From the NCBI GenBank assembly GCA_029060215.1, contig JAIDUK010000035.1, forward strand, positions 13,235-77,234: a DNA stretch of 64,000 nucleotides. Reading direction: 5' to 3'. Numbering within the stretch: the stretch's first letter is position 1; every line of letters starts with the position of its first letter. This DNA comes from Alistipes sp. (lineage in GTDB: Bacteria; Bacteroidota; Bacteroidia; Bacteroidales; Rikenellaceae). The notes beneath the pieces were generated by a model. It did not search any database. It was not told the DNA's origin and saw only the letters and a program-made list of their open reading frames with translations. Positions 9,965 through 55,118 of this stretch are shown in pieces. Made by a program: the position numbers and the translations under genes.

Positions 9965-10920
9965 GAAAAGATTCTTCGCCGCCTGCGGTTCCTCAGAATG
10001 ACAAAAAGAGGGTTTCTCAGAATGACGGTCGGGTGGTCGGATGGCGGTGGGTTTTGTTCGGATTGCCACGCTCGTTGTACTCGCTCGCAATGACAGAGGG
10101 TAGCAGTATGTCATTCTGAACGCAGTGAAGAATCTGCTTTTGTTGGAAAAACCAGATTCTTCGTCAAGGCGATGCCTTTTCCTCAGAATGACAAAAGGAG
10201 CGAAGAGTGACATGGCGGCTGGGCTCCTCAGAATGACAAAAGGAGCGAAGAATGATGTGGCTGGGTTTCTCAGAATGACAGAGAGCCGCAGCATGTCATG
10301 TTGAACGAAGTGAAACATCTGTGGACATTGGATTCTTGACTGCGTTGCGCTCCTCGCAATGACGGTTAGGTGGTCGGATGGCGGTGGGTTTTGTTCGGAT
10401 TGCCACGTCGCTGCGCTTCTCGCAATGACACAGAGCAGCAGCATGTCATGTTGAACGTAGTGAAACATCTGTATAGTTTGTTCGGTTATAGATTCTTCGC
10501 TATTGCTCAGAATGACGTAGTGAGTTGGGCTCCTCAGAATGACAAAAGGAGTTCAGAAGACAGGGCGAGGGCTCCGCAGAATGACAAGAGGAGCGAAGAA
10601 TGACATGGCGGCTGGGCTCATCAGAATGATACAAGGCAGCAGTATGTCATGTTGAACGAAGTGAAACATCTGTGGACATAGGATTCTCGACTGCGCTGCG
10701 CTCCTCGCAATGACGATGCTGTGGAACAGATTCTTCGCTGCGCTCAGAATGACAGAGGAAGAAGTTTGGAATGACAAATGGTGGGGACTGAATGCCGATT
10801 AAAACGATTTATCACGCAGCTAAAACGTTTTAATCGACGCTTGTGCCGAGCAGGAGCAAAGTTCACTTCTCACATTTCACCTTTCACTTTCCACTTTTCA
10901 CCTTTAACCTTCCACCTGAA
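9965..10920. repeat. Large mosaic REP-like cluster (three GTCAT-tagged hairpin types, a 14-mer hairpin and a heptamer tract)
   Basis: More than ten (C)AGAATGAC/GTCATTCT units, several GCAATGAC units, and GTCATGTTGAACG(A/T)AGTGAAACATCT three times. Confidence 0.9.
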
Positions 10921-10995
10921 AAAAATATTCGTCCCGGGAGCAATCCCCCGGGACGAAATATTCGGAAAGCGCGGATGCGCCCGATTGTCGGGACG

Positions 10996-11574
10996 CTACA
11001 CGAGCCCCGAGAAACCCATGAACGCCATGGCGAGGATGCCTGCCGTAATCAGGGCGATGGGAATTCCCTTGAACGCCTTGGGCACGTCCTCGAAATCGAG
11101 CCGCTCGCGGATACCGGCGAAGAGTACCAGAGCAAGGGCGAACCCGACAGCCGTAGCCACGGAGTAGGTGACGCTTTGCAAGAGGTCGAACTTCTTCTGA
11201 ATCATCAGAATAGCCACACCCAGCACGGCGCAGTTGGTCGTGATCAGGGGCAGGAAGATGCCGAGCGCCTGATAGAGCGAGGGCGACAGTTTCTTGAGGA
11301 TGATTTCGACCATCTGCACCAGCGCCGCGATGACGAGGATGAAGACGATGGTCTGCATATAAACGATGTCGAGCGGCACGAGCACGTAGGTCTGGATCAA
11401 CCAAGCCACTACGGCGGCGATGGCCATGACGAAAGTTACGGCCGCCCCCATGCCCAGCGAAGTCTCGACCTTCGACGACACGCCCAAGAAGGGGCAGATG
11501 CCGAGGAATTGCGCCAGCACGACGTTGTTGACGAAGATGGCGCCGATGATGATTGCGAAATAGGAAAGCTCCAT
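10996..11574 (-). CDS. rnfA: Rnf electron transport complex subunit A
   Basis: [34 protein letters not shown]. Confidence 0.95.
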
Positions 11575-11576
11575 AA

Positions 11577-12161
11577 CTATCTTTTGGCTAATTTATTGAA
11601 CAGAACCATGAGGTAACCGAGCACGAGGAAGGCACCCGGCGCGAGGACGAAGATCAGGGGCGTGAAGTCCGAAATCCCGAAGCTCCAGCCGAAGATCGAA
11701 CCGCTGCCCAGAATCTCGCGCACGGCGCCGATGACCGTCAGCGACAGGGTGAAGCCCAGCCCGATGCCCACGCCGTCGAGCACCGAATCGAACGCCGAAT
11801 TCTTCGAAGCGAAGGCCTCGGCGCGTCCGAGGATGATGCAGTTGACGACGATCAGCGGGATGAAGACGCCCAGCGACGCGTAGAGCGCCGGAACGAACGC
11901 CTGCATCAGCATCTGGATGATGGTGACGAACGATGCGATGATGACGATGAACGCCGGGATGCGCACCTTGTCGGGGATGATGTTCTTCACGAGCGAAATC
12001 ACCAGATTCGACATGATCAGCACGGCCATCGTGGCCAGCCCCATGCCCATGCCGTTCTCGGCCGAAGTGGTGGTGCCCAGCGTGGGGCACATGCCCAGCA
12101 CCAGCACGAACGTGGGGTTGTTCTTGACGATGCCGCTCAATATGATATTCAACTTATTCAT
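11577..12161 (-). CDS. rnfE: Rnf complex subunit E
   Basis: [47 protein letters not shown]. Start MNKLN at 12161. Confidence 0.95.
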
Positions 12162-12804
12162 TCTGACCTCCTTCCTGAGCCTCGGGCTCGCTGGTGCGGG
12201 TGGCGCCCGATGCCGCGTCGGCCGGGACTTCGCCCGTCGAAACGCTTTGGAAAGCCATCCATGCACGGTTGATCGCGTCGACATAGGCGCGCGACGAAAT
12301 GGTGGCGGCGGTCAGCGCATCGACATCGCCGCCGTCCTTGGTGACGGCCAGCTTGCCGCCCACGAGTTTCTTTTGTTCGAGCTGCTGCCCCTTGATGCTG
12401 TTGATCAGCGGGTTGCCCTCGTCGGCCATCTTGGTGCCCAGCCCCGGGGTCTCGGTCTGCCGCAGCACGTTGACGTTGATGACTTCGCCCGCGGGGGTGA
12501 AGCCGACCATCAGGCTCACGGGACCGCCGAAACCTTGTTCGGAGAGGGTCTCGACCGCATAGCCCACGGTAATGCCGTCCTGCGAGGCAGTGTGGACCGT
12601 GATGGTCATGCCGTCGATGAGCAGTTCATCGCTTACCGTCTCGTCGAATGCGGGCAGCACTTCGTTGAGAGCCGCGGTCTTGGCGGCCTGCTCGGCCTGC
12701 GCGATGGGTTCCAGCGTAATCATGTTGACTACGCCGACACCCGCCGAAGCCACGAGCGTAATGCCCAGCAGCACGGCCGTCATGTTGAGAAGCGTACTTT
12801 TCAT
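12154..12804 (-). CDS. rnfG: Rnf complex subunit G
   Basis: ETPGLG and the FMN-binding DALTAATISSRA motif. Start MKSTL at 12804. Confidence 0.93.
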   Translation of the reverse strand: MKSTLLNMTAVLLGITLVASAGVGVVNMITLEPIAQAEQAAKTAALNEVLPAFDETVSDELLIDGMTITVHTASQDGITVGYAVETLSEQGFGGPVSLMVGFTPAGEVINVNVLRQTETPGLGTKMADEGNPLINSIKGQQLEQKKLVGGKLAVTKDGGDVDALTAATISSRAYVDAINRAWMAFQSVSTGEVPADAASGATRTSEPEAQEGGQNE

Positions 12805-12818
12805 AATGCCGGTCCTCC

Positions 12819-13778
12819 TTATTTCACGCCGAAGCGCTTGGGTTTGACATACTTGTTGATCAGGGGCACGGTCGAGTTCATGATCAGGATCGCGAACGAC
12901 ATGCCCTCGGGGTAGGCGCCCCACAGGCGGATGCACATGGTGATGGCTCCGATGCCGATGGCGAAGAGCACACCGCCGCGCACGGTCATGGGCGACGTAG
13001 AGTAGTCCGTGGCCATGAATATGGCGCCCAGCATCGCACCGCCGGCCAGTACATGGAACAGCGGGAACTGCCACAGGGCGGCTTCTTCAGCACCGCGGCT
13101 CAGCGCCACGACAAAAGCGAAGACGGCCATCGTGAAGAGCACCGTGACGGGGATATGCCACGTAATGACCTGCCGCCACAAGAGGTAGACGAATCCGGCG
13201 AGCAAGGCCAGCGCGGCCACTTCGCCCAGCGAACCGGGCATATTGCCCAGCAGCAGATCCTGCACGCCGAGAATATCGGCGGCGGCTCCGTGTTTGACGG
13301 CTGCCAGCGGCGTTGCGCCCGACAGGGCGTCGAGCCCCTCGACCTCGGGGAACGCGGTCATCTGCACCGGATAGGCGATCAGCAGGAAGACGCGGCCCAC
13401 CAACGCAGGGTTGAAGGGGTTCTTGCCCAAGCCGCCGAAAGTCATCTTGGCGATGGCGATGGCAACGAAAGCGCCCATGACGACGATCCACCACGGAATC
13501 GACGCGGGCAGGTTGAACGCCAGCAGCACACCCGTGACGACGGCCGACCAGTTGCCGACCGTGGGTTTGCCGCCCACCAAAAAACGCTGGATGAGATACT
13601 CGAACCCCACGCACGAGAGCACCGAAAGGGCCGTGACGCAGAGCACGCTCCAGCCGAAGACGACCGTCGAGACGATCAGCGCCGGCACGAGCGCAATGAC
13701 GACGTCGCGCATGATCCGGGCCGTGGAGTGCGAAGTCTGCACGTGCGGAGCGGGGGCGACGATAAGTTTGTTAGCCAT
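12819..13778 (-). CDS. rnfD: Rnf complex subunit D
   Basis: APAPHV, FGGLGKNPFNPALVGR, DALSGATPL, FMATDYSTSP, YPEGMSFAIL. Confidence 0.95.
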   Translation of the reverse strand: MANKLIVAPAPHVQTSHSTARIMRDVVIALVPALIVSTVVFGWSVLCVTALSVLSCVGFEYLIQRFLVGGKPTVGNWSAVVTGVLLAFNLPASIPWWIVVMGAFVAIAIAKMTFGGLGKNPFNPALVGRVFLLIAYPVQMTAFPEVEGLDALSGATPLAAVKHGAAADILGVQDLLLGNMPGSLGEVAALALLAGFVYLLWRQVITWHIPVTVLFTMAVFAFVVALSRGAEEAALWQFPLFHVLAGGAMLGAIFMATDYSTSPMTVRGGVLFAIGIGAITMCIRLWGAYPEGMSFAILIMNSTVPLINKYVKPKRFGVK

Positions 13779-13812
13779 GTTTATTGTTGTTTTTCTGACT
13801 GCATGTGTTGAA

Positions 13813-15162
13813 CTACTTCTTGGGGGCTGCCGCCGCGGCGCGTTGGCGGATGATGCCCATGACGGTCTGCTTGCCCAGCCGGATCCAGTCGAGCAGGGGC
13901 AGGTACGACGGGCACGTCGACTGGCAGCAGCCGCACTCGATGCACGAGGTGATCATCTGCTCCTCGAGGGTCTCCCAGCCCTTCTTCTGGGTCGTCTTCG
14001 AGAGGAAATAGGGTTCCAGCCCCATCGGGCAGGCGGCCACGCACTTGGCGCATTTGATGCACTGCGAGGCTTCGCGGCGCACGGCGTCGCGGCCGCTGAG
14101 GACGGTGATTCCCGAGCAGCCCTTCGTCACAGGCGAGCCGAGTTCGATCATGGCGCGGCCCATCATGGGTCCGCCGTTGATGACCTTGCCGGCGTCGGCG
14201 GGCAGACCTCCCGCAGCGTCGATGAGCGCCTGAACGGGCGTGCCCATGCGCGTCAGCAGGTTCTTGGGTTCCTTGACGCTCTTGCCCGTGATCGTCACCA
14301 CGCGTTCGATCAGCGGTTTGTTCTTCTGCACGGCCTGATAGACCGCAAAGGTGGTCGATGCGTTGCAGACCACGGCGCCCACGTCGATGGGCAGTGCGGG
14401 CGGGGGCGGTACCTGACGGCCCGTCACGGCTGCTATCAGCTGTTTTTCACCGCCTTGCGGGTAGCGTACTTTCAGGGGCACCACCTCTACACCGTGGTAT
14501 TCCTTGACAAGTTTCGAGAGGTGTGCAATGGCGTCGGGTTTGTTGTTCTCGATGCCGATGAACGCACGGTCGACACCGATGGCTTTCATCAGAATCGATA
14601 CGCCGACAACCAGTTCCTCGCCGTGCTCCAGCATCGTCCGATGGTCCGACGTGAGGTAGGGTTCGCATTCTACGCCGTTGATTATCAGCGCTTCGGCTTT
14701 CTTGCCCGGAGGGATCGACAGTTTTACATGCGCGGGGAACGTCGCTCCGCCCATGCCCACAATGCCGGCATCCTTGATCTTGGCAATGATCTCTTCGGCC
14801 GAGAGCGTGCATTCTTTCACGAGCGTCTCCGAGCGGTCGATGCCTTCGGCCCATTCGTCGCCCTCGCGCTGGATGGTGATCATCATCTGGCGCAGGCCTT
14901 GTCCGTTGGGTTGCATGTCCACAGCCGTCACCGTGCCCGATATGGGCGAGTGGATGTTGGCCGACATGAAGCTGCCCGCCTCGGCTATGAGCTGTCCGGT
15001 GAGCACCTTGTCGCCCTTGGCTACCTTGGCCACGGCAGGCGCACCGATATGCTGGGCCAGCGGAATCATCACCTTATCGGGCAGCGGAAGCACCTCGACG
15101 GGCTTGCCGCAGCTCAGTTTGTTTTCCGACGGATGAACTCCGCCCATTGGAAATGTTTTCAT
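13813..15162 (-). CDS. rnfC: Rnf complex subunit C
   Basis: QHIGAPA, GIVGMGGATFP, ECEPYLTSD, YPQGGEKQL, two 4Fe-4S motifs. Confidence 0.95.
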   Translation of the reverse strand: MKTFPMGGVHPSENKLSCGKPVEVLPLPDKVMIPLAQHIGAPAVAKVAKGDKVLTGQLIAEAGSFMSANIHSPISGTVTAVDMQPNGQGLRQMMITIQREGDEWAEGIDRSETLVKECTLSAEEIIAKIKDAGIVGMGGATFPAHVKLSIPPGKKAEALIINGVECEPYLTSDHRTMLEHGEELVVGVSILMKAIGVDRAFIGIENNKPDAIAHLSKLVKEYHGVEVVPLKVRYPQGGEKQLIAAVTGRQVPPPPALPIDVGAVVCNASTTFAVYQAVQKNKPLIERVVTITGKSVKEPKNLLTRMGTPVQALIDAAGGLPADAGKVINGGPMMGRAMIELGSPVTKGCSGITVLSGRDAVRREASQCIKCAKCVAACPMGLEPYFLSKTTQKKGWETLEEQMITSCIECGCCQSTCPSYLPLLDWIRLGKQTVMGIIRQRAAAAAPKK

Positions 15163-15328
15163 AGGTATCTATCCTTTCTTCTTTGTACCGGAGGCGTTTC
15201 CGGTCCGAGTCCGCAGTTCCCGGGCGTTGGCGCCCTTCTCGCAGGGCGTCGTCCCGTTTCTTCTGGCGGGGGTTCGCCGCCGCGGCTCGACCGGCACGGC
15301 CGGTCCTCAGTACATGGTTGAACGATTC

Positions 15329-16360
15329 TTATTCGGCCTTGGGCGTTTCCTCGGCAGGTGCTTCCGCTGCGGTCTTGGCTTTTGCGGCGGCCGGTTTGGC
15401 GGTTGCCTTGGGAGCCTTTTCCGCCGCCGGTTTGGCCGGAGCTTTCTCAGCCGCAGGCTTGGCGGGTGCTTCCGCGGCTGCCTTGGCAGGAGTTTCGGCG
15501 GCCGGTTTGGCAGGAGCTGCCGGAGCCTTGGGCTCTTTGGGCAGGGGTTCCATGTTCACCAGCTTGATGGCACCCGTCGGGCATTCGTTGACGCACTTGC
15601 GGCAGAGCTTGCACTTCTGCGGATCGATGTAGGCAAGGTTGTTCTCGACCGTAATGGCTCCGAACGCGCACGCCTTCTCGCACTTGCCGCAGCCGATGCA
15701 CCCGGCCTTGCAGGCCTTCATCACCGCAGCGCCCTTTTCTTTCGACACGCACGATACATACACTGCACGGTCCTTGGGCCATTTCTTGCGCAGTTCGATG
15801 ATCCCCTTGGGGCAGGCTTTCACACAGGCTCCGCAGGCGGTGCACTTCTCGGGGTCGACCACCGGCAGACCCGTTTCGGGGTCTACGGCAATGGCTCCGA
15901 ACGCGCACACCGTCGCACAGTCGCCGAAGCCCAGACAGCCGAACGTGCAGCCCGTCTCGCCCGCATAGAGCGACGAAGCCACGGCGCACGACCGGGCCCC
16001 GTTGTATTCGTTGGTGCGGGGACGCTTGGCGCAGGTGCCGCCGCAGCGGACCGTTGCGGTCTGCGGTTCCTTTTCGGCGGCCGCCTTGCCCAGATAGGCC
16101 GCGATGGCCTTCATGCAGTCGCCGCCGCCCACCGGGCAGAAGAGCGCCGAGATGTCGTCGTTCTTGACCAGCGCATCGGCCATGCCGCGGCATCCTGCGA
16201 AACCGCAGCCTCCGCAATTGGCACCGGGCAGCATCTTCTCCACCTCGTCTATGCGCGGGTCCTCTTCGACGCGGAATTTCTGCGCCACGAAGTAGAGGAT
16301 CACGGCGGCAAGCACCCCGAGGACGCAAAGCGTCAGGATGGTGTAAAGTAATACTTCCAT
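15329..16360 (-). CDS. rnfB: Rnf complex subunit B with Ala/Pro/Lys-rich tail
   Basis: LPGANCGGCGFAGC, CPVGG, multiple CxxCxxCxxxC motifs. Confidence 0.93.
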   Translation of the reverse strand: MEVLLYTILTLCVLGVLAAVILYFVAQKFRVEEDPRIDEVEKMLPGANCGGCGFAGCRGMADALVKNDDISALFCPVGGGDCMKAIAAYLGKAAAEKEPQTATVRCGGTCAKRPRTNEYNGARSCAVASSLYAGETGCTFGCLGFGDCATVCAFGAIAVDPETGLPVVDPEKCTACGACVKACPKGIIELRKKWPKDRAVYVSCVSKEKGAAVMKACKAGCIGCGKCEKACAFGAITVENNLAYIDPQKCKLCRKCVNECPTGAIKLVNMEPLPKEPKAPAAPAKPAAETPAKAAAEAPAKPAAEKAPAKPAAEKAPKATAKPAAAKAKTAAEAPAEETPKAE

Positions 16361-16779
16361 TAGTTTTTAGTTATTGTAAATTGAATTGTGTGTTCGATTC
16401 TGCGGCGGAAAAGCCACAATACCATATAATATAGGACCACGGCCGCCAGCGAGACCAGCGCTCCGCGGCCCTCGCTCCACCCGGCAACGCCGATAGTGAG
16501 CCCCAGCGCAGCCAGCAGGACCGCCAGCGCCCCGCCGTAGGCCAGCGCTACCGACAGCATCCCCGCCCGGCGCCGGATCCCCACGGTCACCGCATCGCCC
16601 GGTTCGAAGCGCGCCGCATCGGCCGCGGCCACTTCCACCATCTTCTCCTGCGTCTCGGCCAGTCCGCACGCTTGCCGCGCGCTGCACGTTCCGCAGGCGC
16701 TGTGCGAGGTGATCCGCACGAAGACCTTGCCGCCCTCCGCACGCTCCACCGTGCCGCTATGCTCGATCAGTTCCGCCAC
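16360..16779 (-). CDS. RseC/MucC-family (SoxR reducing system) membrane protein
   Basis: IEHSGTV, SACGTCSARQAC, two TM helices; lies directly upstream of rnfB. Confidence 0.85.
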   Translation of the reverse strand: MAELIEHSGTVERAEGGKVFVRITSHSACGTCSARQACGLAETQEKMVEVAAADAARFEPGDAVTVGIRRRAGMLSVALAYGGALAVLLAALGLTIGVAGWSEGRGALVSLAAVVLYYMVLWLFRRRIEHTIQFTITKN

Positions 16780-16782
16780 GGC

Positions 16783-18360: not shown

Positions 18361-18496
18361 CTATGGTAAATTAAGTCCGGAACTACAACTCCGCAAAGTT
18401 AACGATTATTTGCAAAAGTCGGAAACATTTTCCATTTAATAAATCTACATGCCCGCACGGACCGCAACATAGCAGCAATGAATAGTCGGGTTCCCA

Positions 18497-19060
18497 AAAG
18501 TGAAAAGTGAAATGTGAAAGTGAGAGGTGAAAGGTGAAAGGTGAAAGGTGAAAGTGAAAAGTTATATGTGAAAGGTGGAAAGTGAAAGTGAGAAGTGGAA
18601 AGTGAAAGGTGTCTTGTCATTCTTCACTCCTTTTGTCATTCTGAGGAAAGGCATCGCCTTGACGAAGAATCCGTTTTTCCAACAAAGCAGTTGTTTCACT
18701 GCGTTCAGAATGACATACTGCTGCCCTCTGTCATTGCGAGGAGCGCAGCGAAGAATCTGGTCCGCAGCATCGTCATTGCGAGCGAGTATAACGAGCGTGG
18801 CAATCCGAACAAAACCCACTGCCATCCGACCGCCTGACCGGCATTCTAAGAAACCCGCTCTGTCATTCCGAGAACCCCAGTCAGTCATGTCATTCTTCGC
18901 TCCTCTTGTCATTCTGAGCCCCCCCCCTTGTCATTCTGAGCGCAGCGAAGAATCCGTTTTTCAACAAAGCAGATTCTTCACTTCGTTCAGAATGACATCC
19001 GCTTCCCCTCTCGGACCCTGCCGGGGCGGTCGCGCCATAAGCACGAGCCGGGCGAACCGA
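18497..19060. repeat. GTGAAA(A/G) heptamer tract followed by a mosaic REP-like cluster
   Basis: Tandem GAAAAGT/GAAAGGT units at 18497-18609, then GTCATTCTGAG and GTCATTGCGAG units; modules shared with the 10 kb and 27.5 kb clusters. Confidence 0.9.
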
Positions 19061-19250
19061 AAATTATCCGGACGGCAAAACGACGATTCATTACACCTTA
19101 TCGAATGATTCATTCGGTTTCGGGGCCAGCCGAAACGCCCTTTGCTGCTAAAACGTTTTAACTCGCCTTTCGCTTCGGGCTCTCGGAAAAGCAGACAGCC
19201 GAAACCCCAGCAAGGGTTCCGGCTGTCGAAACGTTCCGCCGAGCAGGCGG

Positions 19251-20035: not shown

Positions 20036-20821
20036 TTAAACCCAATAGTTCACCGGATTGCGTGCGTGCGCGCTCCTGCGGAGCGCAAAGGTAAGCAAAT
20101 TTTTCGACAAAACATCATCGAGCAGACGAATTGCGCAATATTCGCTCTCGAAATGGCCCGCGTCGGCCACCGTGAGGGCCGAATCGGGGGTCATGAAATC
20201 GTTGTACTTCAGGTCGGCCGTGAGGTAGAAATCGGCTCCGGCGGCCCGGGCCGCCCCGATGAGCGAAGCCCCCGCCCCGGTGCAGACGGCCACACGGCGC
20301 ACCTCGTCGCGGACGATGTCGCTGTGGCGGATCACCCGGGCGCCCAACGTCCTCTGGATCAGCCGCATGAAATCGACCGTAGCCACGGGTGCGGCCAGTT
20401 CGCCGACCACACCGAAGCCCACCTTGCCGTCGGCGTCAGCGGGTTCCAGCACCCGCAGCCGCTCCACTCCCAGCTGCCCGGCCAAGTACCAGCTCATCCC
20501 GCCGGGCGCACTGTCGAGGTTGGTGTGGCAGGCATAGAGCGCAATGCCGCGGCGGATGGCCCGTTCGACGCACCGCTGCACCATGTCGGCCGAGTTAAAA
20601 CGTTTTAGCGCATGGAAAACCACCGGATGATGCGCGATGATCAGGTCGCAGCCCTCGCGCTCGGCTTCGTCCATTACCTCGTCGGTGACGTCGACGGCCA
20701 GCAGGGCTGCATGCACCTCGTCGTCGGGACGTCCGACGATCAGCCCGGCGTTGTCGTAGGATGCCTGCCACGCAAGCGGCGCGAAACGTTCGATGACGTC
20801 GGTTATTTCCTTGATTCTCAT
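20036..20821 (-). CDS. Nif3-like dinuclear metal centre protein
   Basis: YDNAGLIVG, IIAHHPVVF, YACHTNLD, DAGHFESE. Confidence 0.92.
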   Translation of the reverse strand: MRIKEITDVIERFAPLAWQASYDNAGLIVGRPDDEVHAALLAVDVTDEVMDEAEREGCDLIIAHHPVVFHALKRFNSADMVQRCVERAIRRGIALYACHTNLDSAPGGMSWYLAGQLGVERLRVLEPADADGKVGFGVVGELAAPVATVDFMRLIQRTLGARVIRHSDIVRDEVRRVAVCTGAGASLIGAARAAGADFYLTADLKYNDFMTPDSALTVADAGHFESEYCAIRLLDDVLSKNLLTFALRRSAHARNPVNYWV

Positions 20822-21676: not shown

Positions 21677-21805
21677 ATTGTCGTTCAATTGCTTTTATAA
21701 CCCGTGTTGCAAAAACATATTCGTCGTTCCAGCCGCTCCGAGCGGGCTTTCCCCGCTGCCATTTTGGAGAAGTCATAAGCCCCGGCGAAGAATGGCAGAA
21801 TCATA

Positions 21806-22023
21806 GATTCTTAACTGCGCTGCGCTCCTCGCAATGACGATGCTGAGAACAGATTCTTCGCTGCGCTCAGAATGACAGAGGGATGGGACTGAATGCCGAT
21901 TAAAACGATTTATTACGCAGCTAAAACGTTTTAATCGACGTTTGTGCCTTCTTGCCGTTTATCTCTCACTTCTCACTTCTCACTTTCCACCTTTCACTTT
22001 TAACTTTTCACCTTTCACTTTTC
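21806..22023. repeat. Composite REP / 14-mer hairpin / heptamer element, near copy of 10682-10918
   Basis: Same module order and near-identical sequence to the 10.7 kb copy. Confidence 0.88.
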
Positions 22024-23390
22024 AAAATCCTCAGCGAAGCAGGATAGAGGTTGTTCACCCGGCCGCCGATGCGTTTGGCGAAGCCCAGCGCACGCCCCTC
22101 GCAGCAGATCAGGTTCATCCCCTCGGCCAATGCGTCGGGCCGCACCTCGGCCTTGCGCAGGTAATCGACGGCTCGCTCCGGATCGAACTCCGCCGCAGGC
22201 ACCGCCGAGCGGTCGAGCCCGGCAAAAAAAGCCAGCGCGGGGTCGGGTTTGAGCCGCCCCTTGAACAACTGCCCCATCGCCACGCCCGAGCAGATGACGG
22301 GCAGCACCTCGGAGAGCGTCCGCACGGCATCGGCCTGTGCGGCGGGCCAGCCGTAGAACGTGTCGCCGATGGCTGCGAAGCGCATCGCGGCAGGCTCCTG
22401 CACCCACCGGCCCAACTCGGCCACGGCGCTCTTGTCGGCCTGCCCGAAGAGCGTCCGGCGGGCCTTGGGGCTGCGCATCCGGGCGTCGAGCTCCGGATCC
22501 TTGCAGGCCACGGCAGCGAAAAAGCCCTCGCCGCAAGCCCGGTGCGGAAAAAAGCGGTAGGTACGGAACGCCCCGACCCGCCCGCAGACGATGCCCCATT
22601 CTGACCCAACCTCGGGCACGGGGGCCTCGGCCGCTTCGTCGCCCGCCCACGCGAGCATCCGTTCGAGCGAACCTTCGTCCTCGTCGCGGTTGAAGGTGCA
22701 GGTGCTGTATATCAACCGGCCGCCGGGTTTCAGCGCCCGCCATGCTTCGCGCAGAATGGCGTCCTGCCGCGCGGCGCACACCCGGACGCTGCTCTCGCTC
22801 CACTCGCCGCGCGAAGCGGGGTCCTTGCGGAACATCCCCTCGCCCGAACACGGCGCGTCGACGGCCACGACGTCGAACCAATTCTCCAACTCGCCCAACG
22901 CCTTGGGCTCGCAGGCGGTGACCGCCACGTTGCCTGTGCCCCATTTACGGACGTTGTCGGCCAGCACCGAAGCGCGGCGGCGGTCGATCTCGTTGGCCAC
23001 GACCAACCCCTCGGGGCCCGCGAGCGAGGCATACAAAGTCGTCTTGCCGCCGGGAGCGGCGCAAAGGTCGAGCACGCGTCGGCCGGCGAGGTCGCCCGCC
23101 AACAACCCGACGAACTGCGAAGCGGCTTCCTGCACGTAATAAGCCCCGGCATGGAACGCCGGGTCGAACGTAAACTGCGGCCGCGCGCCCAGATACCACC
23201 CGTCGGCGCACCACGGCACCTGCCCGACGGCACCCAACCGCTGCGACAGAACCACGGCGTCGCCGCACTTGGCGGGATTCAGCCGGATGCTCACGGGCGG
23301 CACGCTGTCGAGCGCTGCGCAAAGCGCGGCCCCCTCTTCGGGCCCGAGGTCGCGGGCGACGCGCCCGACGAAAGCGACGGGAAGCTCCAT
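22008..23390 (-). CDS. RsmB/NOP2-family (RsmF-like) RNA cytosine methyltransferase
   Basis: YYVQEAASQ, LDLCAAPGGKT, VDAPCSGEGMFRK, YSTCTF. Start MELPV at 23390. Confidence 0.92.
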   Translation of the reverse strand: MELPVAFVGRVARDLGPEEGAALCAALDSVPPVSIRLNPAKCGDAVVLSQRLGAVGQVPWCADGWYLGARPQFTFDPAFHAGAYYVQEAASQFVGLLAGDLAGRRVLDLCAAPGGKTTLYASLAGPEGLVVANEIDRRRASVLADNVRKWGTGNVAVTACEPKALGELENWFDVVAVDAPCSGEGMFRKDPASRGEWSESSVRVCAARQDAILREAWRALKPGGRLIYSTCTFNRDEDEGSLERMLAWAGDEAAEAPVPEVGSEWGIVCGRVGAFRTYRFFPHRACGEGFFAAVACKDPELDARMRSPKARRTLFGQADKSAVAELGRWVQEPAAMRFAAIGDTFYGWPAAQADAVRTLSEVLPVICSGVAMGQLFKGRLKPDPALAFFAGLDRSAVPAAEFDPERAVDYLRKAEVRPDALAEGMNLICCEGRALGFAKRIGGRVNNLYPASLRILKSER

Positions 23391-27329: not shown

Positions 27330-27775
27330 TTCCACCGCCGTTTTCCGGGCCCTCTGCTGCCATTCTGCGGAGCCCTCGCCCTGTCTTCTGAACTCCTTTT
27401 GCCATTCTGAGGAGCCCAGCCCGCCACGTCATTCTGAGCGATAGCGAAGAATCTATAACCGAACAAACTATACAGATGTTTCACTACGTTCAACATGACA
27501 TACTGCCGCTCTGTGTCATTCTGAAGGGCCCAGCTCACTACGTCATTCTGAGCGATAGCGAAGAATCTATAACTGAACAAACTATACAGATGTTTCACTA
27601 CGTTCAACATGACATACTACGACCCTTTTGTCATTCTGAGGAAAAGGCATCGCCTTGACGAAGAATCCGTTTTCCAACAAAGCAGATTCTTCACTTCGTT
27701 CAGAATGACATCCGCCGCAGCCGCTGGCGGACCCGGCCGGGATGGTCGCGCCATAAGCACGAGCCGGGCGCCGTG
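27330..27775. repeat. Mosaic REP-like cluster with an internal direct duplication
   Basis: An approximately 80-bp block (GTCATTCTGAGCGATAGCGAAGAATCT...AACATGACATACT) occurs twice and also inverted near 10440-10520. Confidence 0.88.
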
Positions 27776-27941
27776 TATTACTTAGTCTTGTCTTGCTAAA
27801 ACGTTTTAGCGGGACGAGCCGTGCGAACCGCGGAAAATCGAACTGAAGGACGGGCGGGGAGCCGAGGAAAACCGGGCTGCGGGAAACAAAAAACAGCGGC
27901 CGGGAAACCGGCCGCCGTAGAATCGGAAAGACCCCAGCCTG

Positions 27942-28403: not shown

Positions 28404-28491
28404 GTTGTAGATTCGTTATGGTTGATCCGGAATCCTATCAAAAAAGCGGCCGTTCGTCCCGGACATGGCGGACGGGGTTTGCTAAAACGTT

Positions 28492-29928
<1,437 letters not shown>

Positions 29929-31364: not shown

Positions 31365-31530
31365 GGTGGAAAGTGAAAAGTGGAAAGTGAAAAGTGAAAA
31401 GTGAAAAGTGAAAAGTGAAAGGAAGATCGAACGTTTTGACAGATTCTTCGCTACGCTCAGAATGACATATTTTGTTCGGAAATCTTGCTCAGAATGACAT
31501 ATCTTGCTCGGAATATCTTGTTCGGAATGA
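31365..31530. repeat. GTGAAAA heptamer tract plus REP-like units
   Basis: Near-perfect (GTGAAAA)n at 31365-31422, then AGATTCTTCGCTACGCTCAGAATGAC and degenerate GAATGAC units. Confidence 0.88.
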
Positions 31531-37310: not shown

Positions 37311-38384
37311 ATGAAGGACAAACTCAAGGAACACATTCGGATCGTGGACGTTGCCCGCATGGCCGGAGTTTCGGCCGGAACGGTCGACCGCGTGCTGCAC
37401 AACCGGGGCAAGGTCTCCGAGGAGAATTTGCGTAAAATACGCGAGGTGCTCGCCTCGGTCGACTACCGGCCCAATCTGGTGGCCCGGTCGCTGGCGTCGT
37501 GCCGCGAACGGACGCTGGCCGTCATCATCCCCGCCTACCGCGAGGACGATTACTGGGCCTATGTCGACGCCGGTATTTCGCGCGCCGCCGTGGGGGCCGA
37601 GCGTTTCAACGTGCGCGTGCGCCGGTTCTTCTTCGACCAGTACGACCATGCCACCTTCCTGAAGACGCTCGCCCGCGTACGCGACGAACATTTCGACGGC
37701 GTGCTGCTGGCCACGCTCTTTTCCGATTCGGTGGTCGACTACGCCCGCGAACTCGATGCCGAGGGCACGCCCTATGTCTTCGTCGACTCCAACATACCGG
37801 GGTGCAACCGGCTGGCCTATTTCGGCACTTCGTCGTTCGACGCCGGGGTAGTGGCGGCGCGCCTGCTCTCCGACCGCATCGCGCCGGAGGCCGACATTCT
37901 GGTGGGGAGCATCATCCACCGCGGCGACGGGGGCTCCAACCAGTGCCGCTGCCGCGAGATGGGTTTCCGCGACTACCTCGGCCGCGCGGGCTTCCGGGGC
38001 CGTCTGCTCGGGGCTTCGCTGCGGCTCGACGACGAGGGCTACAACCGCCGCGTGCTCGACGAACTGTTCGAGGAGAATCCCCGCATAGCCGGAGCCGTGA
38101 CCTTCAATTCGACTTGCTACATCCTTGCCAACTACCTCCGCTCGTCGGGCCACGACGGGGTGCGGCTCGTGGGCTACGACGTCATCCGCCGCAACCGCGA
38201 GATGCTCGAAGCCGGGGTGGTCACGGCGCTCGTGGCCCAGCGGCCCGCGGCGCAGGGATTCCACGGTGTGATGGCGCTCTGCGACATGCTGGTCAGCGGG
38301 CGCCGCGGCCCGTCCGACAACCTGATGCCCATCGACATCGTTTTTCGGGAAAACGTCCGTTTTTACAACAGTCATATCATCTAA
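37311..38384 (+). CDS. LacI-family transcriptional regulator (UxuR-like by context)
   Basis: IRIVDVARMAGVSAGTVDRVLHNRG HTH plus periplasmic-binding-type domain. Start at 37311. Confidence 0.9.
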   Translation: MKDKLKEHIRIVDVARMAGVSAGTVDRVLHNRGKVSEENLRKIREVLASVDYRPNLVARSLASCRERTLAVIIPAYREDDYWAYVDAGISRAAVGAERFNVRVRRFFFDQYDHATFLKTLARVRDEHFDGVLLATLFSDSVVDYARELDAEGTPYVFVDSNIPGCNRLAYFGTSSFDAGVVAARLLSDRIAPEADILVGSIIHRGDGGSNQCRCREMGFRDYLGRAGFRGRLLGASLRLDDEGYNRRVLDELFEENPRIAGAVTFNSTCYILANYLRSSGHDGVRLVGYDVIRRNREMLEAGVVTALVAQRPAAQGFHGVMALCDMLVSGRRGPSDNLMPIDIVFRENVRFYNSHII

Positions 38385-45858: not shown

Positions 45859-45887
45859 GCGCGTCCCACCTTAAAACCGAATTCCTT

Positions 45888-47450: not shown

Positions 47451-47462
47451 CAAGTAGTTTTT

Positions 47463-47507: not shown

Positions 47508-47523
47508 CCCGATTTCGTTTCGT

Positions 47524-49329: not shown

Positions 49330-51680
49330 CCTGCAAAGCATTCCTTTTCGCCGCGGCTTTTCTCGCCTGCGCTTGCGGCGGCCCCCGCCGCGACGGCAAT
49401 ACGTTCCGGTTCGACGACCGGGGTATGGCCTGCGCCGTCGAATTCCGGTCCGGGAGGGCCGTGCGCATCCTCGTGCGGCCCGACAGCGCCCGGCTCGTCA
49501 CCCGCAGGCTCGTCACCGTCCCTGCTGACGCTCCCGTCGACGTGCGGTGCCGTTCCGACAGGGAGGGTTATCTGTTCCGTACTTCGCAGTTGGAGGTCCG
49601 CTACGACCGTGCGTCGGGGCGTTTCTCGTTCTTCGATCCCGCTTCCGAGCAGCCCTTGCTCGAAGAGGACGCGCGCTCGCTCGTGCCCGACACCGTCGGC
49701 GGCGAGGCTTGTTATGCCGTCGCGCAGTCGTTCCGCACTTCGCCCGACGAATCGCTCTTCGGGCTCGGGCAGTACCGCACCGGGCGCGTCGACCATAAGC
49801 GCGATACGGTGCTGCTCTTGCAGGCCAACAAGGAGATCGCCAACCCCTGCCTCGTCTCGTCGCGCGGTTACGGCTTGTTGTGGGACAATTATTCGGCCTC
49901 CGAGTTCCGCGACGGCGGCGACCGCTTCGAGTTCGTCTCCGAGGTGGGCGATGCCGTCGACTACTGGTTCGTGCGCGGCGACGACCCGGCCGATTGCGTG
50001 CGCGGCTACCGCGAGCTCACCGGGGCCGCTTCGCTGCCGCCCAAATGGGTCTTCGGCTTCTGGCAGTCGCGCGAGCGCTACAAGTCGTTCGACGAGCTCG
50101 AAAGCGTCGTGCAGGAGTTCCGCAGGCGGCGCATTCCCCTCGACGTCATCGTGCAGGACTGGGAGTATTGGGGCGACAGGCCGCAGTGGAATGCCCTCGG
50201 GTGGGATTCCGTGCGTTTTCCCGACCCCGCCGCCCGCATCGACCGCCTGCACAGGCATTACGGCGTCCGGCTCATGCTTTCGGTCTGGCCCGGGTTCGGG
50301 CCGCAGACGGCCGTTTACCGCGAGTTGGAGCAGGCCGGGGCGTTGTTCGACGAGCCTACGTGGGCCGGTTACAAGGTTTTCGACGCCTTCGATTCCGTGG
50401 GCCGCGACATCGTTTGGCGCCACTTCAGCCGCGGGCTCCTCTCTACCGGGGTCGACGGTTGGTGGATGGACGCCACCGAGCCCTCGTTCCGCGAGGGATT
50501 CACCCAGCGGCGGCAGGAGGCGCGTTCCAAGGCGGCCGGGCAGACCGCTTGGGGGCCTTTCCACCGCTACCTCAACGCCTATTCGCTCGTCTGGATGGCC
50601 GACCTCTACGGCCGCCTGCGCGCCGCGCAGCCCGATCGCAGACCTTTCCTCTTCACCCGGTCGGCTTTCGCCGGGCAGCAGCGCTTCGGCACCGCCGTCT
50701 GGTCGGGCGACGTCGTCGCTTCGTGGGACAGTTTCCGGCGGCAGCTCGCCGCCGGGGCGGGGCTCTCAGCTTCGGGTTTTCCGTGGTGGACTTTCGATGC
50801 GGGCGGGTTCTTCGTCAGCACCAACGGCGGACCCTATCCCCGCGGTCTGGCCGACCCCGACTACCTCGACCTCTACGCCCGCTGGTTCCAGTTCGCGGCG
50901 TTCCTGCCCATCTTCCGCGCCCACGGCACCGACGTGCCGCGCGAGCCGTGGCAGTTCGGCGGCGAGCAGAGCCTCTTCTACCGCAACCAGCTCAAGTACA
51001 TCGACCTGCGTTACCGCCTGATGCCTTTCATCTACTCCGCCGCCCGCCGCGTCGCCGCCGAGGACGCGTCCATGTTCGAGCCCCTCGGCATGGCTTTTCC
51101 CGCCGACCGTGCCGTCGCCGCGGCCGACGATTCCTACCTCTTCGGCGGGGCGCTGCTCGTGCGGCCCGTCTTCCGCCCCATGCCTGCCGGAGCCCGGCAG
51201 CAGCAGGTCGCCACCTTGTTGCCGCGCCACGAGGGGGCGTGGTGGTACGATTTCTTCACGGGTCGGGCTCACCGCGGCGGCGCATGCGTCGCCAAGGCTT
51301 GCGACCTCACCGAGTTGCCCCTCTATGTGCGCGGCGGCTCGATCGTGCCTCTCGGCGAGCCTAAGCAGTCCGTCATGGAGGGCCCCGACGAGCGGCTCGA
51401 AATCCGCATCTATGCCGGGGCCGACGCCCGTTTCGACCTCTACGACGATTCCGGCGACGGCTTCGGTTATCTCGACGGCCGCCATGCTCTTGTCCGTTTC
51501 GAGTGGGACGATGCCGCGTCCGTGCTGCGCATAGCCCGCCGCGAGGGGGCCTACGAGGGGATGGCTTGCGTGCAGGAGCTGACCCTGCGGCTGTTCCGCC
51601 CCGGCTGCGCTCCCGTCGTGCGGCAGGTCCGTTATTCCGGCGAGCCTTTGTCCGTTGCTTTTAACGATCCTATTTTATGA
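49326..51680 (+). CDS. GH31 alpha-glycosidase (alpha-xylosidase/glucosidase-like)
   Basis: GFWQSRERY, IVQDW, WWMDATEP, WSGDV, RWFQF...FRAHG. Start MTCKAF at 49326. Confidence 0.9.
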   Translation: MTCKAFLFAAAFLACACGGPRRDGNTFRFDDRGMACAVEFRSGRAVRILVRPDSARLVTRRLVTVPADAPVDVRCRSDREGYLFRTSQLEVRYDRASGRFSFFDPASEQPLLEEDARSLVPDTVGGEACYAVAQSFRTSPDESLFGLGQYRTGRVDHKRDTVLLLQANKEIANPCLVSSRGYGLLWDNYSASEFRDGGDRFEFVSEVGDAVDYWFVRGDDPADCVRGYRELTGAASLPPKWVFGFWQSRERYKSFDELESVVQEFRRRRIPLDVIVQDWEYWGDRPQWNALGWDSVRFPDPAARIDRLHRHYGVRLMLSVWPGFGPQTAVYRELEQAGALFDEPTWAGYKVFDAFDSVGRDIVWRHFSRGLLSTGVDGWWMDATEPSFREGFTQRRQEARSKAAGQTAWGPFHRYLNAYSLVWMADLYGRLRAAQPDRRPFLFTRSAFAGQQRFGTAVWSGDVVASWDSFRRQLAAGAGLSASGFPWWTFDAGGFFVSTNGGPYPRGLADPDYLDLYARWFQFAAFLPIFRAHGTDVPREPWQFGGEQSLFYRNQLKYIDLRYRLMPFIYSAARRVAAEDASMFEPLGMAFPADRAVAAADDSYLFGGALLVRPVFRPMPAGARQQQVATLLPRHEGAWWYDFFTGRAHRGGACVAKACDLTELPLYVRGGSIVPLGEPKQSVMEGPDERLEIRIYAGADARFDLYDDSGDGFGYLDGRHALVRFEWDDAASVLRIARREGAYEGMACVQELTLRLFRPGCAPVVRQVRYSGEPLSVAFNDPIL

Positions 51681-54307
51681 TACGATTCCTTTCCGTTCTG
51701 TTCTTCGCACTGATGCCGCTGGCGCCGCTCGCCGCCCGCGAGCGCTATACCATCAACGAGGCTTGGCGCTTCTCGAAAGGTTCGCCTTACGGGGCGTTCC
51801 TGCCCGGGGCCGACGATGCCGCGTGGGAGACGGTCGACATTCCCCACACGTGGAACGCCGCCGATGCCGACGACGACGAGCCCGGCTTCTATCGCGGCCC
51901 GGGGTGGTACCGCAAGCGTTTCTTCCTCTCCGAAGCCGCCGCGGCCGGGCAGGTCTACCTCTGTTTCGAGGGGGTCGACCAGTTCGCCTGCGTCTGGGTC
52001 AACGGCCATTTCGCCGGGAAGCATGCGGGCGGGTACACGCGTTTCGTCGTCGACATCACGCCGTTCGTCGCCCCGGGCGAGAACCTCGTGGCCGTCGAGG
52101 CCGACAACCGCCACGACCCCGACATGCCGCCCCTCTCGGCCGACTTCACCTTCTTCGGGGGCATCTACCGCGATGTCGGCCTTTTGCTCACCGATAAGAT
52201 CCACATCGCCCCCACCGACATGGCTTCTTCGGGCGTCTACCTCTCCACGCCCCGCGTCACGGCGCAGTCGGCCGAGGTCGACATCCGCACGCTGGTGGCC
52301 AACCGCTCCGGCCGCGAGGCCCGGGTGCGCGTCGAGCACCGCATCTTCGCCCCCGACGGTTCCGAGGCCGCCCGGGCGGAGCAGGAGTTTGTCGTTGCGC
52401 CCGGCCAGACCGCCGAGCCCCTTTGCCGGGGCATCCGCATTGCCGATCCGCAGCTGTGGGACCTCGACGCTCCCAACCTCTACCGTGTTCTCACGCGCAT
52501 AATCGACGCCGACGGCACCGAACTCGACTGCGTATCCGACCCGCTGGGGCTCCGGTGGTTCGAGTTCGATCCCGACAAGGGGTTCTCGCTCAACGGACGT
52601 CCGCGCAAACTGGTCGGCACCTGCCGCCATCAGGACTACGAAAGGCGCGGCTGGGCCCTCGCCGACGCCATGCACGAACGCGACATCCGCCTTTTGAAGC
52701 AGATGGGCGGCAATTTCCTGCGCGTTTCCCACTATCCGCAGGACCCCGTCGTGCTCGAAATGTGCGACAGGCTGGGCATTCTCGCGTCGGTCGAGATTCC
52801 CGTTGTCAACGCCGTCACCGAGAGCGACGCCTTCCTCGACAACTGCGTCCGCATGGTCCGCGAGATGATCCGGCAGGATTTCAACCACCCGTCGGTGATC
52901 ATTTGGGCCTACATGAACGAGGTCTTGCTTCGGCCGCCCTACAAGGATCCGGAGCGGCTGGCGACCTATTACAAGGCCGTCGAGCGCGTCGCCCGGGCCT
53001 TGGAGGATGCCGTGCGGGCCGAGGACCCCTCGCGCTATACCATGATGGCCTACCACAACGCGCCCGAAGCCTATGCCGCTGCCGGGCTCACCTGCATCCC
53101 CATGATTCAGGGCTGGAACCTCTATCAGGGGTGGTACGAAAAGGACATCACCCGGTTCGAGAAGATCCTCGACCGGCTCCACGCCGAGTATCCCGACAAG
53201 GTGCTGATGGTCACCGAGTACGGGGCCGACGTCGATCAGCGGGTCCACTCGTTCGCCCCCGAGCAGTTCGATTTTTCGCAGGAGTACGGGCTCGTCTATC
53301 ATCGGCATTACCTGCGCGAGATCATGCGGCGTCCGTTCGTCGCCGGGTCGTCGGTCTGGAACCTCAACAGCTTCTATTCCGAGCCGCGCGCCGACGCCGT
53401 GCCCCATGTCAACCTCAAGGGGCTCACCGGGCTCGACCGCGAACCCAAAGACACCTACCTTTTCTATAAGGCCCGGCTGGCCGGGCCGCAGCTGCTGATC
53501 GGCCATCGGCGCTGGGAGAACCGCGGCGGGGCCGACGACGGCCGGGGCCGCTCGACGCAGCCCGTTCCGGTCTTCTCCGACCGGCCGGCCGTCACGTTGT
53601 TCCACAACGGGCGCAAGCTCGCCACCAAGAAGCCCGAGGGCGGGGTGGCTATGTTCGACGTGCCGTTCGTCGACGGCGAAAACAGGCTCGTCGCCACGGC
53701 CGGGTCGCACACCGACGCCCTGACCGTCGATTTCCGCCTGATGAAGGCTTCGCCGCGCGAGTTCTCCGAGCTCTGCGTCATGTTGGGCTCGCCCCGCTAC
53801 TTCGACGACCGCACGGCCGGTACAGCGTGGATTCCCGAGCAGCCCTACAGCCCCGGCAGCTGGGGCTACGTCGGCGGACGTCCTCTGCGCCGCGAGGGTA
53901 CGGGGTGGCTCGGGTCGGCGGCCGACATCAAGGGCACCGACTGCAACGCCCTCTTCCAGACCCAGCGCGTCGGCATCGAGCAGTTCCGCGCCGACGTGCC
54001 CGACGGTACTTATTCCGTCTACTTCCATTGGGCCGAACTCGATGCCGAGGGCGAGCGCGAAGCCTTGGCCTACAACCTCGGGGCCGACGACGCCGGGACC
54101 TGTTACCGGGGGCGCCGTTTCGACGTGGCGATCAACGGTTCCAAACTGTTGGAGAATTTCTCCATCGCCGACGAAGCCGGGTTCGCCCGCGCCTTGGTCC
54201 GCAAGGCCGAGGTCGTGGTCCACGACGGGCAGGGCATCCGCATCGACTTTCTTCCCGTCGAGGGCGAACCCGTGCTGAACGCCATCCGCATCTACCGCAA
54301 CCATTGA
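51677..54307 (+). CDS. GH2 enzyme, probable beta-glucuronidase, with C-terminal malectin-like module
   Basis: RVSHYPQ, WAYMNE (acid/base), VTEYGAD (nucleophile), HVNLKGL (N-x-K-G motif associated with GUS enzymes), LFQTQR...HWAE...FDVAING. Confidence 0.85.
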   Translation: MIRFLSVLFFALMPLAPLAARERYTINEAWRFSKGSPYGAFLPGADDAAWETVDIPHTWNAADADDDEPGFYRGPGWYRKRFFLSEAAAAGQVYLCFEGVDQFACVWVNGHFAGKHAGGYTRFVVDITPFVAPGENLVAVEADNRHDPDMPPLSADFTFFGGIYRDVGLLLTDKIHIAPTDMASSGVYLSTPRVTAQSAEVDIRTLVANRSGREARVRVEHRIFAPDGSEAARAEQEFVVAPGQTAEPLCRGIRIADPQLWDLDAPNLYRVLTRIIDADGTELDCVSDPLGLRWFEFDPDKGFSLNGRPRKLVGTCRHQDYERRGWALADAMHERDIRLLKQMGGNFLRVSHYPQDPVVLEMCDRLGILASVEIPVVNAVTESDAFLDNCVRMVREMIRQDFNHPSVIIWAYMNEVLLRPPYKDPERLATYYKAVERVARALEDAVRAEDPSRYTMMAYHNAPEAYAAAGLTCIPMIQGWNLYQGWYEKDITRFEKILDRLHAEYPDKVLMVTEYGADVDQRVHSFAPEQFDFSQEYGLVYHRHYLREIMRRPFVAGSSVWNLNSFYSEPRADAVPHVNLKGLTGLDREPKDTYLFYKARLAGPQLLIGHRRWENRGGADDGRGRSTQPVPVFSDRPAVTLFHNGRKLATKKPEGGVAMFDVPFVDGENRLVATAGSHTDALTVDFRLMKASPREFSELCVMLGSPRYFDDRTAGTAWIPEQPYSPGSWGYVGGRPLRREGTGWLGSAADIKGTDCNALFQTQRVGIEQFRADVPDGTYSVYFHWAELDAEGEREALAYNLGADDAGTCYRGRRFDVAINGSKLLENFSIADEAGFARALVRKAEVVVHDGQGIRIDFLPVEGEPVLNAIRIYRNH

Positions 54308-54311
54308 CGCC

Positions 54312-55118
54312 ATGCGACGTTTCCTCTTCTTCGTTTTCGCTTGGTGCCTGCCCTCGGGGCTCGCCGCCCAGCCGCAGCGGTTGCAGATCGTGCTCTGCAT
54401 CGGGCAGTCCAACATGGCCGGGCGCGGGGCGTTCGACGCTGCTGCGCGCGATACCTTGCCCGGCGTCTTTCTGTTCAATGCCGACGGGTGTTTCGAACCT
54501 GCCGTCGAGCCTTTGAACCGTCATTCGTCGGTTCGCAAGGAGCTCTCCATGCAGCGCGTGGGGCCTGCGGGCAGTTTCGCCGCCGCCTTCGCCGCCGCGA
54601 CCGGGCGTCCCGTAGGGCTCGTCGTCAACGCGCGCGGCGGCAGTTCCATCGGCGAGTGGACAGGCTCCGACGGCCGCCTGCTCGATTCGGCGCTGGTCCG
54701 ACTGCGGGCTGCGCAGGAGTGGGGCGACGTGGTCGCCGTGTTGTGGCATCAGGGCGAAGCCGATGCCCGCCATCCGGAGCGCTACGAAGCCCGGTTGCGG
54801 GAGCTCGTCGGGCGCTTGCGTGCCGAAGTCGGTGACCCGCAGCTGCCGTTCGTCTTCGGCGAGATCGCCCGGTGGAACTGGACCGGGCGGCCCGAGGGTA
54901 CGGAGCCATTCAACGCCATGCTCCGCGCATTGCGGCTGCCTTATGCGGCCTGCGTTTCGTCCGAGGGCCTCGCACCCATGCGGGACGAGACCGATCCCCA
55001 TTTCTCGGCCGCCGGCCAGCGCGAACTGGGAGCCCGCTATGCTGCCGCGCTATTGCGGCTTCTGTCCGAAAACCAACAAAAAAACCAACGACAATATGAA
55101 CCTGTTAAAACGTTTTAG
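54312..55118 (+). CDS. SGNH acetyl esterase (SASA/CE6-like)
   Basis: CIGQSNMAGRG, ARGGSSI..W, WHQGEAD, D..HF. Confidence 0.85.
   Translation: MRRFLFFVFAWCLPSGLAAQPQRLQIVLCIGQSNMAGRGAFDAAARDTLPGVFLFNADGCFEPAVEPLNRHSSVRKELSMQRVGPAGSFAAAFAAATGRPVGLVVNARGGSSIGEWTGSDGRLLDSALVRLRAAQEWGDVVAVLWHQGEADARHPERYEARLRELVGRLRAEVGDPQLPFVFGEIARWNWTGRPEGTEPFNAMLRALRLPYAACVSSEGLAPMRDETDPHFSAAGQRELGARYAAALLRLLSENQQKNQRQYEPVKTF

Follow-up and report, generated by a model that had tools for sequence, protein, structure and literature searches.

The closest described counterparts of the element analysed here are the operators of RbsR2 and RbsR3 in Bifidobacterium, 18-bp palindromes with a central CpG whose consensus, TGATAAAACGTTTTATCA, contains the 12-bp core TAAAACGTTTTA (PMC4746261). 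Elsewhere, the resemblance of this core to a Cra box has been pointed out (PMC4521459). Regulators of the RbsR type combine a helix-turn-helix (HTH) domain with a periplasmic-binding-protein fold, have a site at their own locus next to a pentose kinase gene, and control few promoter-proximal sites at ribose and nucleoside genes. The element described in this work is a palindrome with the identical core, found seven times in a 64,000-bp stretch of the genome of Alistipes sp. (positions 13235-77234 of contig C29, the whole of which is hereafter called the window; the genome, labelled G000, is a 2.07-Mb assembly in 46 unordered contigs). It shares with the Bifidobacterium systems the length of the palindrome, the central CpG, the architecture of the putative regulator and the presence of sites at the regulator locus beside a pentose kinase gene, but differs from them in having about 95 near-consensus sites in the genome, outer flanks of GC instead of GA/TC, and a position that is in most cases remote from promoters, with unrelated genes as neighbours.

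Two other LacI-family systems show partial resemblance. CcpA of the Firmicutes is a global regulator with more than 100 cre sites in the genome, some of them acting as roadblocks in coding regions; however, cre is degenerate and CcpA needs HPr-Ser-P, whereas the sites described here, in a member of the Bacteroidota, are nearly invariant and the putative regulator scores below the CcpA cut-off. The Cra (FruR) box of Enterobacteria, TGAAACGTTTCA, is built of half-sites in the same way, each of them differing by a single base, and its regulator is likewise a pleiotropic LacI-family protein, but Cra acts at tens of degenerate sites in promoters of central carbon genes. Taken as a whole, the results presented below are probably best explained by the palindrome TGCTAAAACGTTTTAGCA being the operator of one RbsR/FruR/CcpA-like LacI-family regulator encoded elsewhere in the genome, which would have been amplified from about 10-20 to about 95 near-consensus copies, kept by selection and turned into a genome-wide binding network. 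The kind of operator is already known; what appears to be new is that, in one lineage, it has been amplified about ten-fold, giving copies that are conserved, independent of promoters and able to change coding sequences. No description of such an amplification was found in literature searches.

The first-pass annotation of the window had placed TAAAACGTTTTA at positions 10821, 19149, 20596, 21922, 27797, 28483 and 55106, and all seven coordinates proved exact. No copy appeared in 100 dinucleotide-preserving shuffles of the window. As had also been described, GC flanks every window copy on at least one side (on either strand), and on both sides at 27797; the 64% GC assumed at that stage was too high, the measured values being 61.5% for the window and 59.5% for the genome. 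Genome-wide, 58 exact cores were counted, where a second-order Markov model predicts about 0.01, and in an unbiased palindrome census this motif was by far the most over-represented palindrome of the genome. The 16-mer GCTAAAACGTTTTAGC (14-mer form, GCTAAAATTTTAGC) was found in 18, 26, 33 and 19 copies with 0, 1, 2 and 3 mismatches, respectively, versus expected counts of 0.0002, 0.009, 0.22 and 3.4, and the excess was gone at 4 mismatches. Counting up to 3 mismatches, the genome contains 96 sites, approximately one per 22 kb. In copies whose flanks are unique, the base before the 16-mer is T in 70% of half-sites and no information is found further out, so the unit is the 18-bp palindrome, which has both the length (14-20 bp) and the central CpG of the inverted repeats that serve as LacI/GalR operators. 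Tandem pairs of sites are spaced by 21-22 bp, corresponding to two helical turns. A regulator dimer would sit on each palindrome across the central CpG, and the two dimers of a pair would lie on the same face of the helix.

A candidate for the binding protein is found among the three LacI-family genes of the genome, namely the gene at C33:24646-25719, located outside the window and divergent from a ribulokinase gene (itself identified above the NCBIfam cut-off). Six motif copies lie within 3.4 kb around this gene, including one in its own promoter, between the -33 element (TTTG) and the -7 element (TACCTTTG), one 3 nt from the ATG of the ribulokinase gene, and two preceding the next gene downstream; the regulator gene itself is bracketed by two sites. 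The encoded protein is full-length, with an HTH domain (PF00356, 53 bits, over the cut-off) and a sugar-binding domain, and aligns end to end with models and structures of RbsR, FruR, CcpA and PurR. Its best NCBIfam matches, to RbsR, FruR, Cra and CcpA, are all sub-threshold: it is not a CcpA equivalog (TIGR01481, 167.5 bits versus a cut-off of 442) and has no equivalog-level match to Cra (NF008452, 167 bits versus a cut-off of 385). The closest solved structure is that of CcpA (E 8e-38).

The presence of the motif follows that of the regulator gene. In a search of 40 relatives, orthologues were found within the genus only in the sister species G023 (82% identity), G009 (68%) and G007 (59%), with further orthologues in two other families (48% and 41%). 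The core is present in exactly 3 of 24 sampled genomes of the same genus, namely those whose regulator orthologue reaches 59% identity or more, while 21 have none; same-genus genomes that lack the regulator gene carry 0-1 motif copies. Moreover, a TAAAACGTTTTA-like site was detected 60-100 bp upstream of the regulator orthologue in all five genomes compared (G000, G023, G009, G030 and G025, spanning 100-41% identity), and a second one just past the stop codon of the orthologue in G000, G023, G009 and G030. G000, G023 and Alistipes muris, whose orthologue has 357 aa (G058:C1:227187-228260), do not differ in the recognition helix; in the loop that follows, residue 29 is Arg in G000 and A. muris and Glu in G023, a replacement that can be put forward, speculatively, as a candidate cause of the shift from TT to GC flanks. 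Judged from sequence comparison, this regulator most likely has the palindrome as its cognate operator and would bind it physically. The first-pass annotation had noticed the LacI/CcpA-like centre AAACGTTT and set this resemblance aside in favour of a genome-wide site; both readings now find support, the former in the link to the regulator and the latter in the lack of promoter bias described below.

The abundance of the motif in G000 is a derived state. A high copy number was found in only 3 of 376 genomes of the genus: G000, A. muris DSM 112343 (G058) and the metagenome-assembled genome (MAG) Mgla_MAG_48-bin_32 (G071), with 72, 42 and 28 strand hits of the 14-mer, respectively, the last figure coming from a half-complete MAG of 1.0 Mb. 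Both A. muris and the MAG share approximately 86% nucleotide identity with G000. In G023, examined as a whole genome (median ortholog identity to G000 of 85% at the amino acid level), the exact core occurs 11 times, in most cases as TTAAAACGTTTTAA. Of the 96 sites of G000, only about 10-12 are matched by a site at the orthologous position in G023: besides those at the regulator locus, they comprise the sites in Nif3, at the 13-bp etfB/etfA junction and at the 3' ends of folD and ruvC, plus one other. The timing of the expansion appears clear from these comparisons: it would fall after the split from G023 and, since copies are found at orthologous places in A. muris, before the split between G000 and this species. 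The increase would thus have taken place in the ancestor of G000, A. muris and the MAG, starting from a state like that of G023.

Comparison with A. muris also provided evidence for the maintenance of the sites. In the 391 kb of this genome used for site comparison, 21 out of 21 sites had a G000 site at the orthologous place, and 20 out of 25 mapped G000 sites had a counterpart in A. muris; in addition, 8 of 10 further sites obtained from a scan of public collections were orthologous to G000 sites. Identity between the two species is 94% for intergenic sites and 62% for their ±40-bp flanks, several of which are unalignable, while in coding regions it reaches 98% for the sites and 90% for the flanks. 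Within the window, the copies at 27797, 28483 and 55106 are conserved: the first (16-mer at 27795) appears in A. muris as GTTAAAACGTTTTAGC, the second (28481) is identical, and the third (55104) is identical together with its flanks. The orthologous A. muris locus lacks the copies at 10821 and 21922, which are repeat-borne, as well as that at 19149. Constraint on synonymous positions of the coding copies, which the first-pass annotation had suggested as a check, was borne out for most of them, conserved at all 16 bases in A. muris, but not for the copy within Nif3. The non-repeat copies thus appear to have been held by purifying selection since the split of the two species, so that they would be functional sites, predicted to bind a protein.

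The extra copies seem to have arisen by two routes, directed substitution and carriage in intergenic repeat modules. The first-pass annotation had considered that the copies might be confined to repeat clusters, which is not the case: 55 of the 96 have unique flanks and about 29 share longer flanks, and spread solely within longer repeats was rejected on the basis of the former. Insertion was also rejected as the origin of the copies, given that alignments with G023 show substitution or replacement and no clean insertions. In codon alignments with G023 and 8-10 further relatives, the unique-flank copies within genes prove to be the product of clustered substitutions, several of them non-synonymous. 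In a gene for a TonB-dependent receptor, for instance, AAG GCT GGG CGT TTC ACA has become AAG CTA AAA CGT TTT AGC. In an RlmD-like methyltransferase gene (G000 C37:9792-11210), KRFC has changed to KRFS, at a position occupied by Cys in 9 of 9 relatives examined and by Ser in G000 and A. muris, and a second operator copy in the same gene turns a conserved Pro into Ala. Other changes of this kind are GPKSFY to GAKSFY and EKRFG to VKRFS. The starting material of the coding copies was provided by peptides such as KRF or KTFY, with codons already resembling the core, and only two reading frames are used, those that avoid the TAA and TAG of the motif. Point substitutions would therefore have perfected existing look-alikes, including at the expense of amino acid changes within genes. 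The copy in the Nif3 gene is the weakest case: the codons of the encoded LKRFN peptide vary freely across the genus and the site is perfect only in G000, with one difference in G023 (CTG for CTA) and two in A. muris (CTG and TTC).

The accommodation of a lineage-specific motif in coding sequences, despite amino acid changes and in stop-free frames only, is also known from the uptake signal sequences (USS) and DNA uptake sequences (DUS) of Pasteurellaceae and Neisseriaceae, and a DNA-uptake-type signal was among the candidates of the first-pass annotation. That the palindrome is a DNA-uptake or recombination-type signal built up by molecular drive is nevertheless very unlikely, to the point of being negligible. 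Uptake sequences are non-palindromic and occur in competent taxa at about 1 per kb; the motif described here is a perfect palindrome with 58-96 copies over 2.07 Mb, a density about 50-fold lower, and is found together with a LacI-family gene and its autoregulatory sites. To our knowledge, natural competence is not known in this group.

Regarding the second route, 14 of the repeat-borne copies form the apex of one stem in a dispersed RT-7-like element, at least 13 copies of which match Rfam RT-7 (RF03028) below the gathering score (E 6e-19 to 2e-4). Each of these elements carries two operator-like palindromes, 21-22 bp apart, at the apex of one stem. They are located outside the window (loci L123-L134, e.g., C25:16331-16623, C28:14243-14486 and C22:673-874) and adjoin unrelated housekeeping genes, such as those for RNase R, UvrB, MnmG and Der. 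G023 has about 14 RT-7-like elements with a different apex; five of them stand in tandem at G023:C2:263388-265600, where the apex is an A/T-rich near-palindrome (TGCAAAAACTTTTGC type) and not the operator. Other repeat-borne copies, including those at 10821 and 21922 of the window, belong to modules followed by an array of GTGAAAN heptamers. Copies carried in intergenic repeat modules would thus have added to those gained by substitution.

The contribution of repeats raises the question of whether the palindrome could be a short repeat of selfish or structural nature, comparable to REP/REPIN or MITE elements, that a transposase has spread and that acts as an RNA hairpin at gene ends, its likeness to LacI operators being coincidental. 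The location of many copies at gene 3' ends or in convergent regions would agree with this explanation, as would the approximately 29 copies in longer repeat families (with the 14 in RT-7-like RNA elements), the predicted RNA hairpin of the 18-mer (about -6 kcal/mol) and the missing repeat-borne copies in A. muris. However, there is little chance that it is correct: the 55 unique-flank copies share no sequence information past 18 bp, A. muris has its copies at orthologous places and not at variable insertion sites, coding copies were made by substitution and not by insertion, variation among the sequences is not accompanied by compensatory changes, and the link with the regulator gene holds in five genomes. 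Neither the variable insertion places nor the longer conserved hairpin unit of REP/REPIN elements was found. Function as an RNA hairpin, given a stability of this order and no covariation, is a weak candidate.

The distribution of the sites relative to genes (called with a dicodon model trained on unambiguous open reading frames, with Pfam validation for the window and selected genes) is not that of a conventional regulon. In a genome that is 87% coding, 73 of the 96 sites are located outside or at the edge of genes; 8 contain the stop codon of a gene and 5 end at most 15 nt from a start codon. Their neighbours are unrelated housekeeping genes (parB, rho, glyS, gltX, sod, etfA, hutH, rsmG) and a gene for an NrtR/AraR-type regulator, with rsmG bracketed by two sites, and no sugar-metabolism theme was found among them. 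When the RT-7 copies are excluded, tandem, convergent and divergent spacers contain 28, 12 and 4 sites, respectively, versus 25.6, 8.1 and 10.2 expected.

Several of the results weigh against a LacI-family operator maintained by selection. The excess in convergent spacers and the deficit in divergent ones denote no promoter preference, and none of 29 site-gene pairs showed overlap with a strict TAnnTTTG -7 box. The products of the downstream genes are heterogeneous (ParB, Rho, GlyRS, GluRS, SOD, EtfA, HutH and RsmG). The information content of the sites is nominally about 30 bits, with 14.7 bits needed to find them, an excess that is atypical of a regulon at equilibrium; the 30-bit figure is an overestimate because the set was chosen by similarity, although the excess is nonetheless clear. 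Lastly, conservation in A. muris does not extend to the copy in Nif3 or to the repeat-borne ones at 19149 and 21922, and some copies may therefore be neutral or recent. A classical promoter-occlusion regulon, considered as a candidate, is unsupported both by the overlap with -7 boxes and by the type of intergenic region. Given that most sites lie off promoters and beside unrelated housekeeping genes, action as a roadblock, insulator or loop anchor is likelier than classical control of a sugar operon, and the amplified operators may constitute a genome-wide binding network that would respond to a ligand.

Some of these features are also those expected if the same LacI-family protein had been co-opted as a chromosome organiser whose sites mark territory. 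SlmA, Noc and MatP rely on tens of 12-16-bp palindromes (SBS, NBS and matS, respectively), characteristically restricted to or excluded from the Ter region and bound by a dedicated protein, here predicted, and SlmA sets a precedent for the co-option of a member of a transcription factor family. The spread of a long near-perfect palindrome over about 75 separate loci on nearly all large contigs, without promoter bias, next to heterogeneous genes, with high information content and conserved between species, would be in line with such a function. Still, we regard it as rather unlikely. The regulator retains an intact sugar-binding domain and its place beside the ribulokinase gene, SlmA, Noc and MatP belong to different protein families, and the dispersion of the loci is only mildly non-Poisson (variance-to-mean of 1.46, over 46 unordered contigs). 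We know of no link between LacI-family proteins and the division or segregation machinery. The parS-like identity contemplated in the first-pass annotation could be discarded: the motif differs from the parS consensus TGTTNCACGTGAAACA, and a separate parS-like palindrome, TGTTCCACGTGGAACA, is located at C30:115462-115477, immediately after mnmG (gidA). Returning to the amplified operator, a further-reaching and tentative proposal is that, in a small Alistipes clade, a LacI-family sugar repressor was co-opted to bind DNA across the whole genome, as an insulator, a roadblock or an organiser of the nucleoid, with selection for its roughly 95 high-affinity palindromes overriding otherwise invariant housekeeping residues and palindromes placed as well in the stem apex of RT-7-like elements.

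The copies within the window and the genes that host them are listed in the table below. Several details given by the first-pass annotation were corroborated here: the copies at 19147-19165 and 20591-20609 share 19 identical bases, as inverted repeats; one copy (20596) is inside the Nif3 gene; two copies (28483 and 55106) overlap stop codons; and two of the seven (10821 and 21922) belong to one duplicated element, a module of about 85 bp in which each is preceded by a weaker site. The inverted pair was also considered as the ends of an invertible segment, which was rejected since inversion would break Nif3. The PepSY-like gene is bracketed by the copies at 27795 and 28481.

Copies of the palindrome in the window and genes that host them (window coordinates)
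Feature	Position	Strand	Remarks
Weaker tandem partner TAAAACGATTTA	10800-10811		Centre-to-centre distance of 21 bp to the 10821 copy
Predicted operator copy GCTAAAACGTTTTAAT	10819-10834 (core 10821-10832)		Duplicated repeat module, downstream of rnf operon terminator
Predicted operator copy GCTAAAACGTTTTAAC	19147-19162		Edge of 700-bp repeat mosaic
DUF34/NIF3 gene	20036-20821	-	Host of coding-region copy; PF01784, E 7e-72
Copy GTTAAAACGTTTTAGC	20594-20609		Within Nif3 gene; encodes genus-wide conserved peptide LKRFN
Weaker tandem partner TAAAACGATTTA	21901-21912		21 bp from the 21922 copy
Predicted operator copy GCTAAAACGTTTTAAT	21920-21935		Duplicate of the 10819 module; MerR-family gene 234 bp downstream
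Perfect 16-mer GCTAAAACGTTTTAGC	27795-27810		131 bp past 3' end of PepSY-like gene
Copy GCTAAAACGTTTTAAT	28481-28496		Contains stop codon of DEAD-box helicase gene; about 80 bp upstream of PepSY-like gene
DEAD-box helicase gene	28492-29928	-	First TAA of the motif serves as stop codon
SASA-family carbohydrate esterase gene	54312-55118	+	TAG stop overlaps the motif
Copy GTTAAAACGTTTTAGC	55104-55119		Two-gene junction in polysaccharide-utilisation locus; overlaps TAG stop of esterase gene; next ATG 6 nt on

Besides the palindromes, the window contains other repeated sequences. The heptamer GTGAAAN (or its complement) forms arrays of 8-17 units at 10862-10917, 18496-18611, 21966-22024 and 31366-31420, immediately adjoining repeat mosaics and, in two of these places, a tandem operator pair. 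Hairpin modules tagged with TCAGAATGACA or GTCATTCTGAG form dense intergenic mosaics of up to about 1.1 kb (9965-10800, 18600-19010, 21790-21890 and 27403-27618). The 700-bp mosaic at 18483-19186 is missing at the orthologous locus of A. muris (G058:C8:54853-57400), which argues for a rapid turnover of the hairpin-module elements. Scans of the window for Rfam families and tRNAs gave no matches. A second LacI-family gene, at 37311-38384, heads a uronate/polysaccharide-utilisation locus and has no copy of the palindrome in its vicinity; its operator is therefore presumably another one.

Few global regulators have been described in the gut phylum Bacteroidota. The palindrome would represent an unusually clean natural case in which the site repertoire of a local transcription factor exploded and was then frozen, with the strengths of a clear timing, an identifiable candidate binder, footprints between species and a visible amino acid cost at conserved positions. 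As such, it may offer a testable model for the origin of global regulators or nucleoid-associated proteins from local ones, and, since the cultured A. muris DSM 112343 has the same sites, the questions that it raises can be directly addressed.

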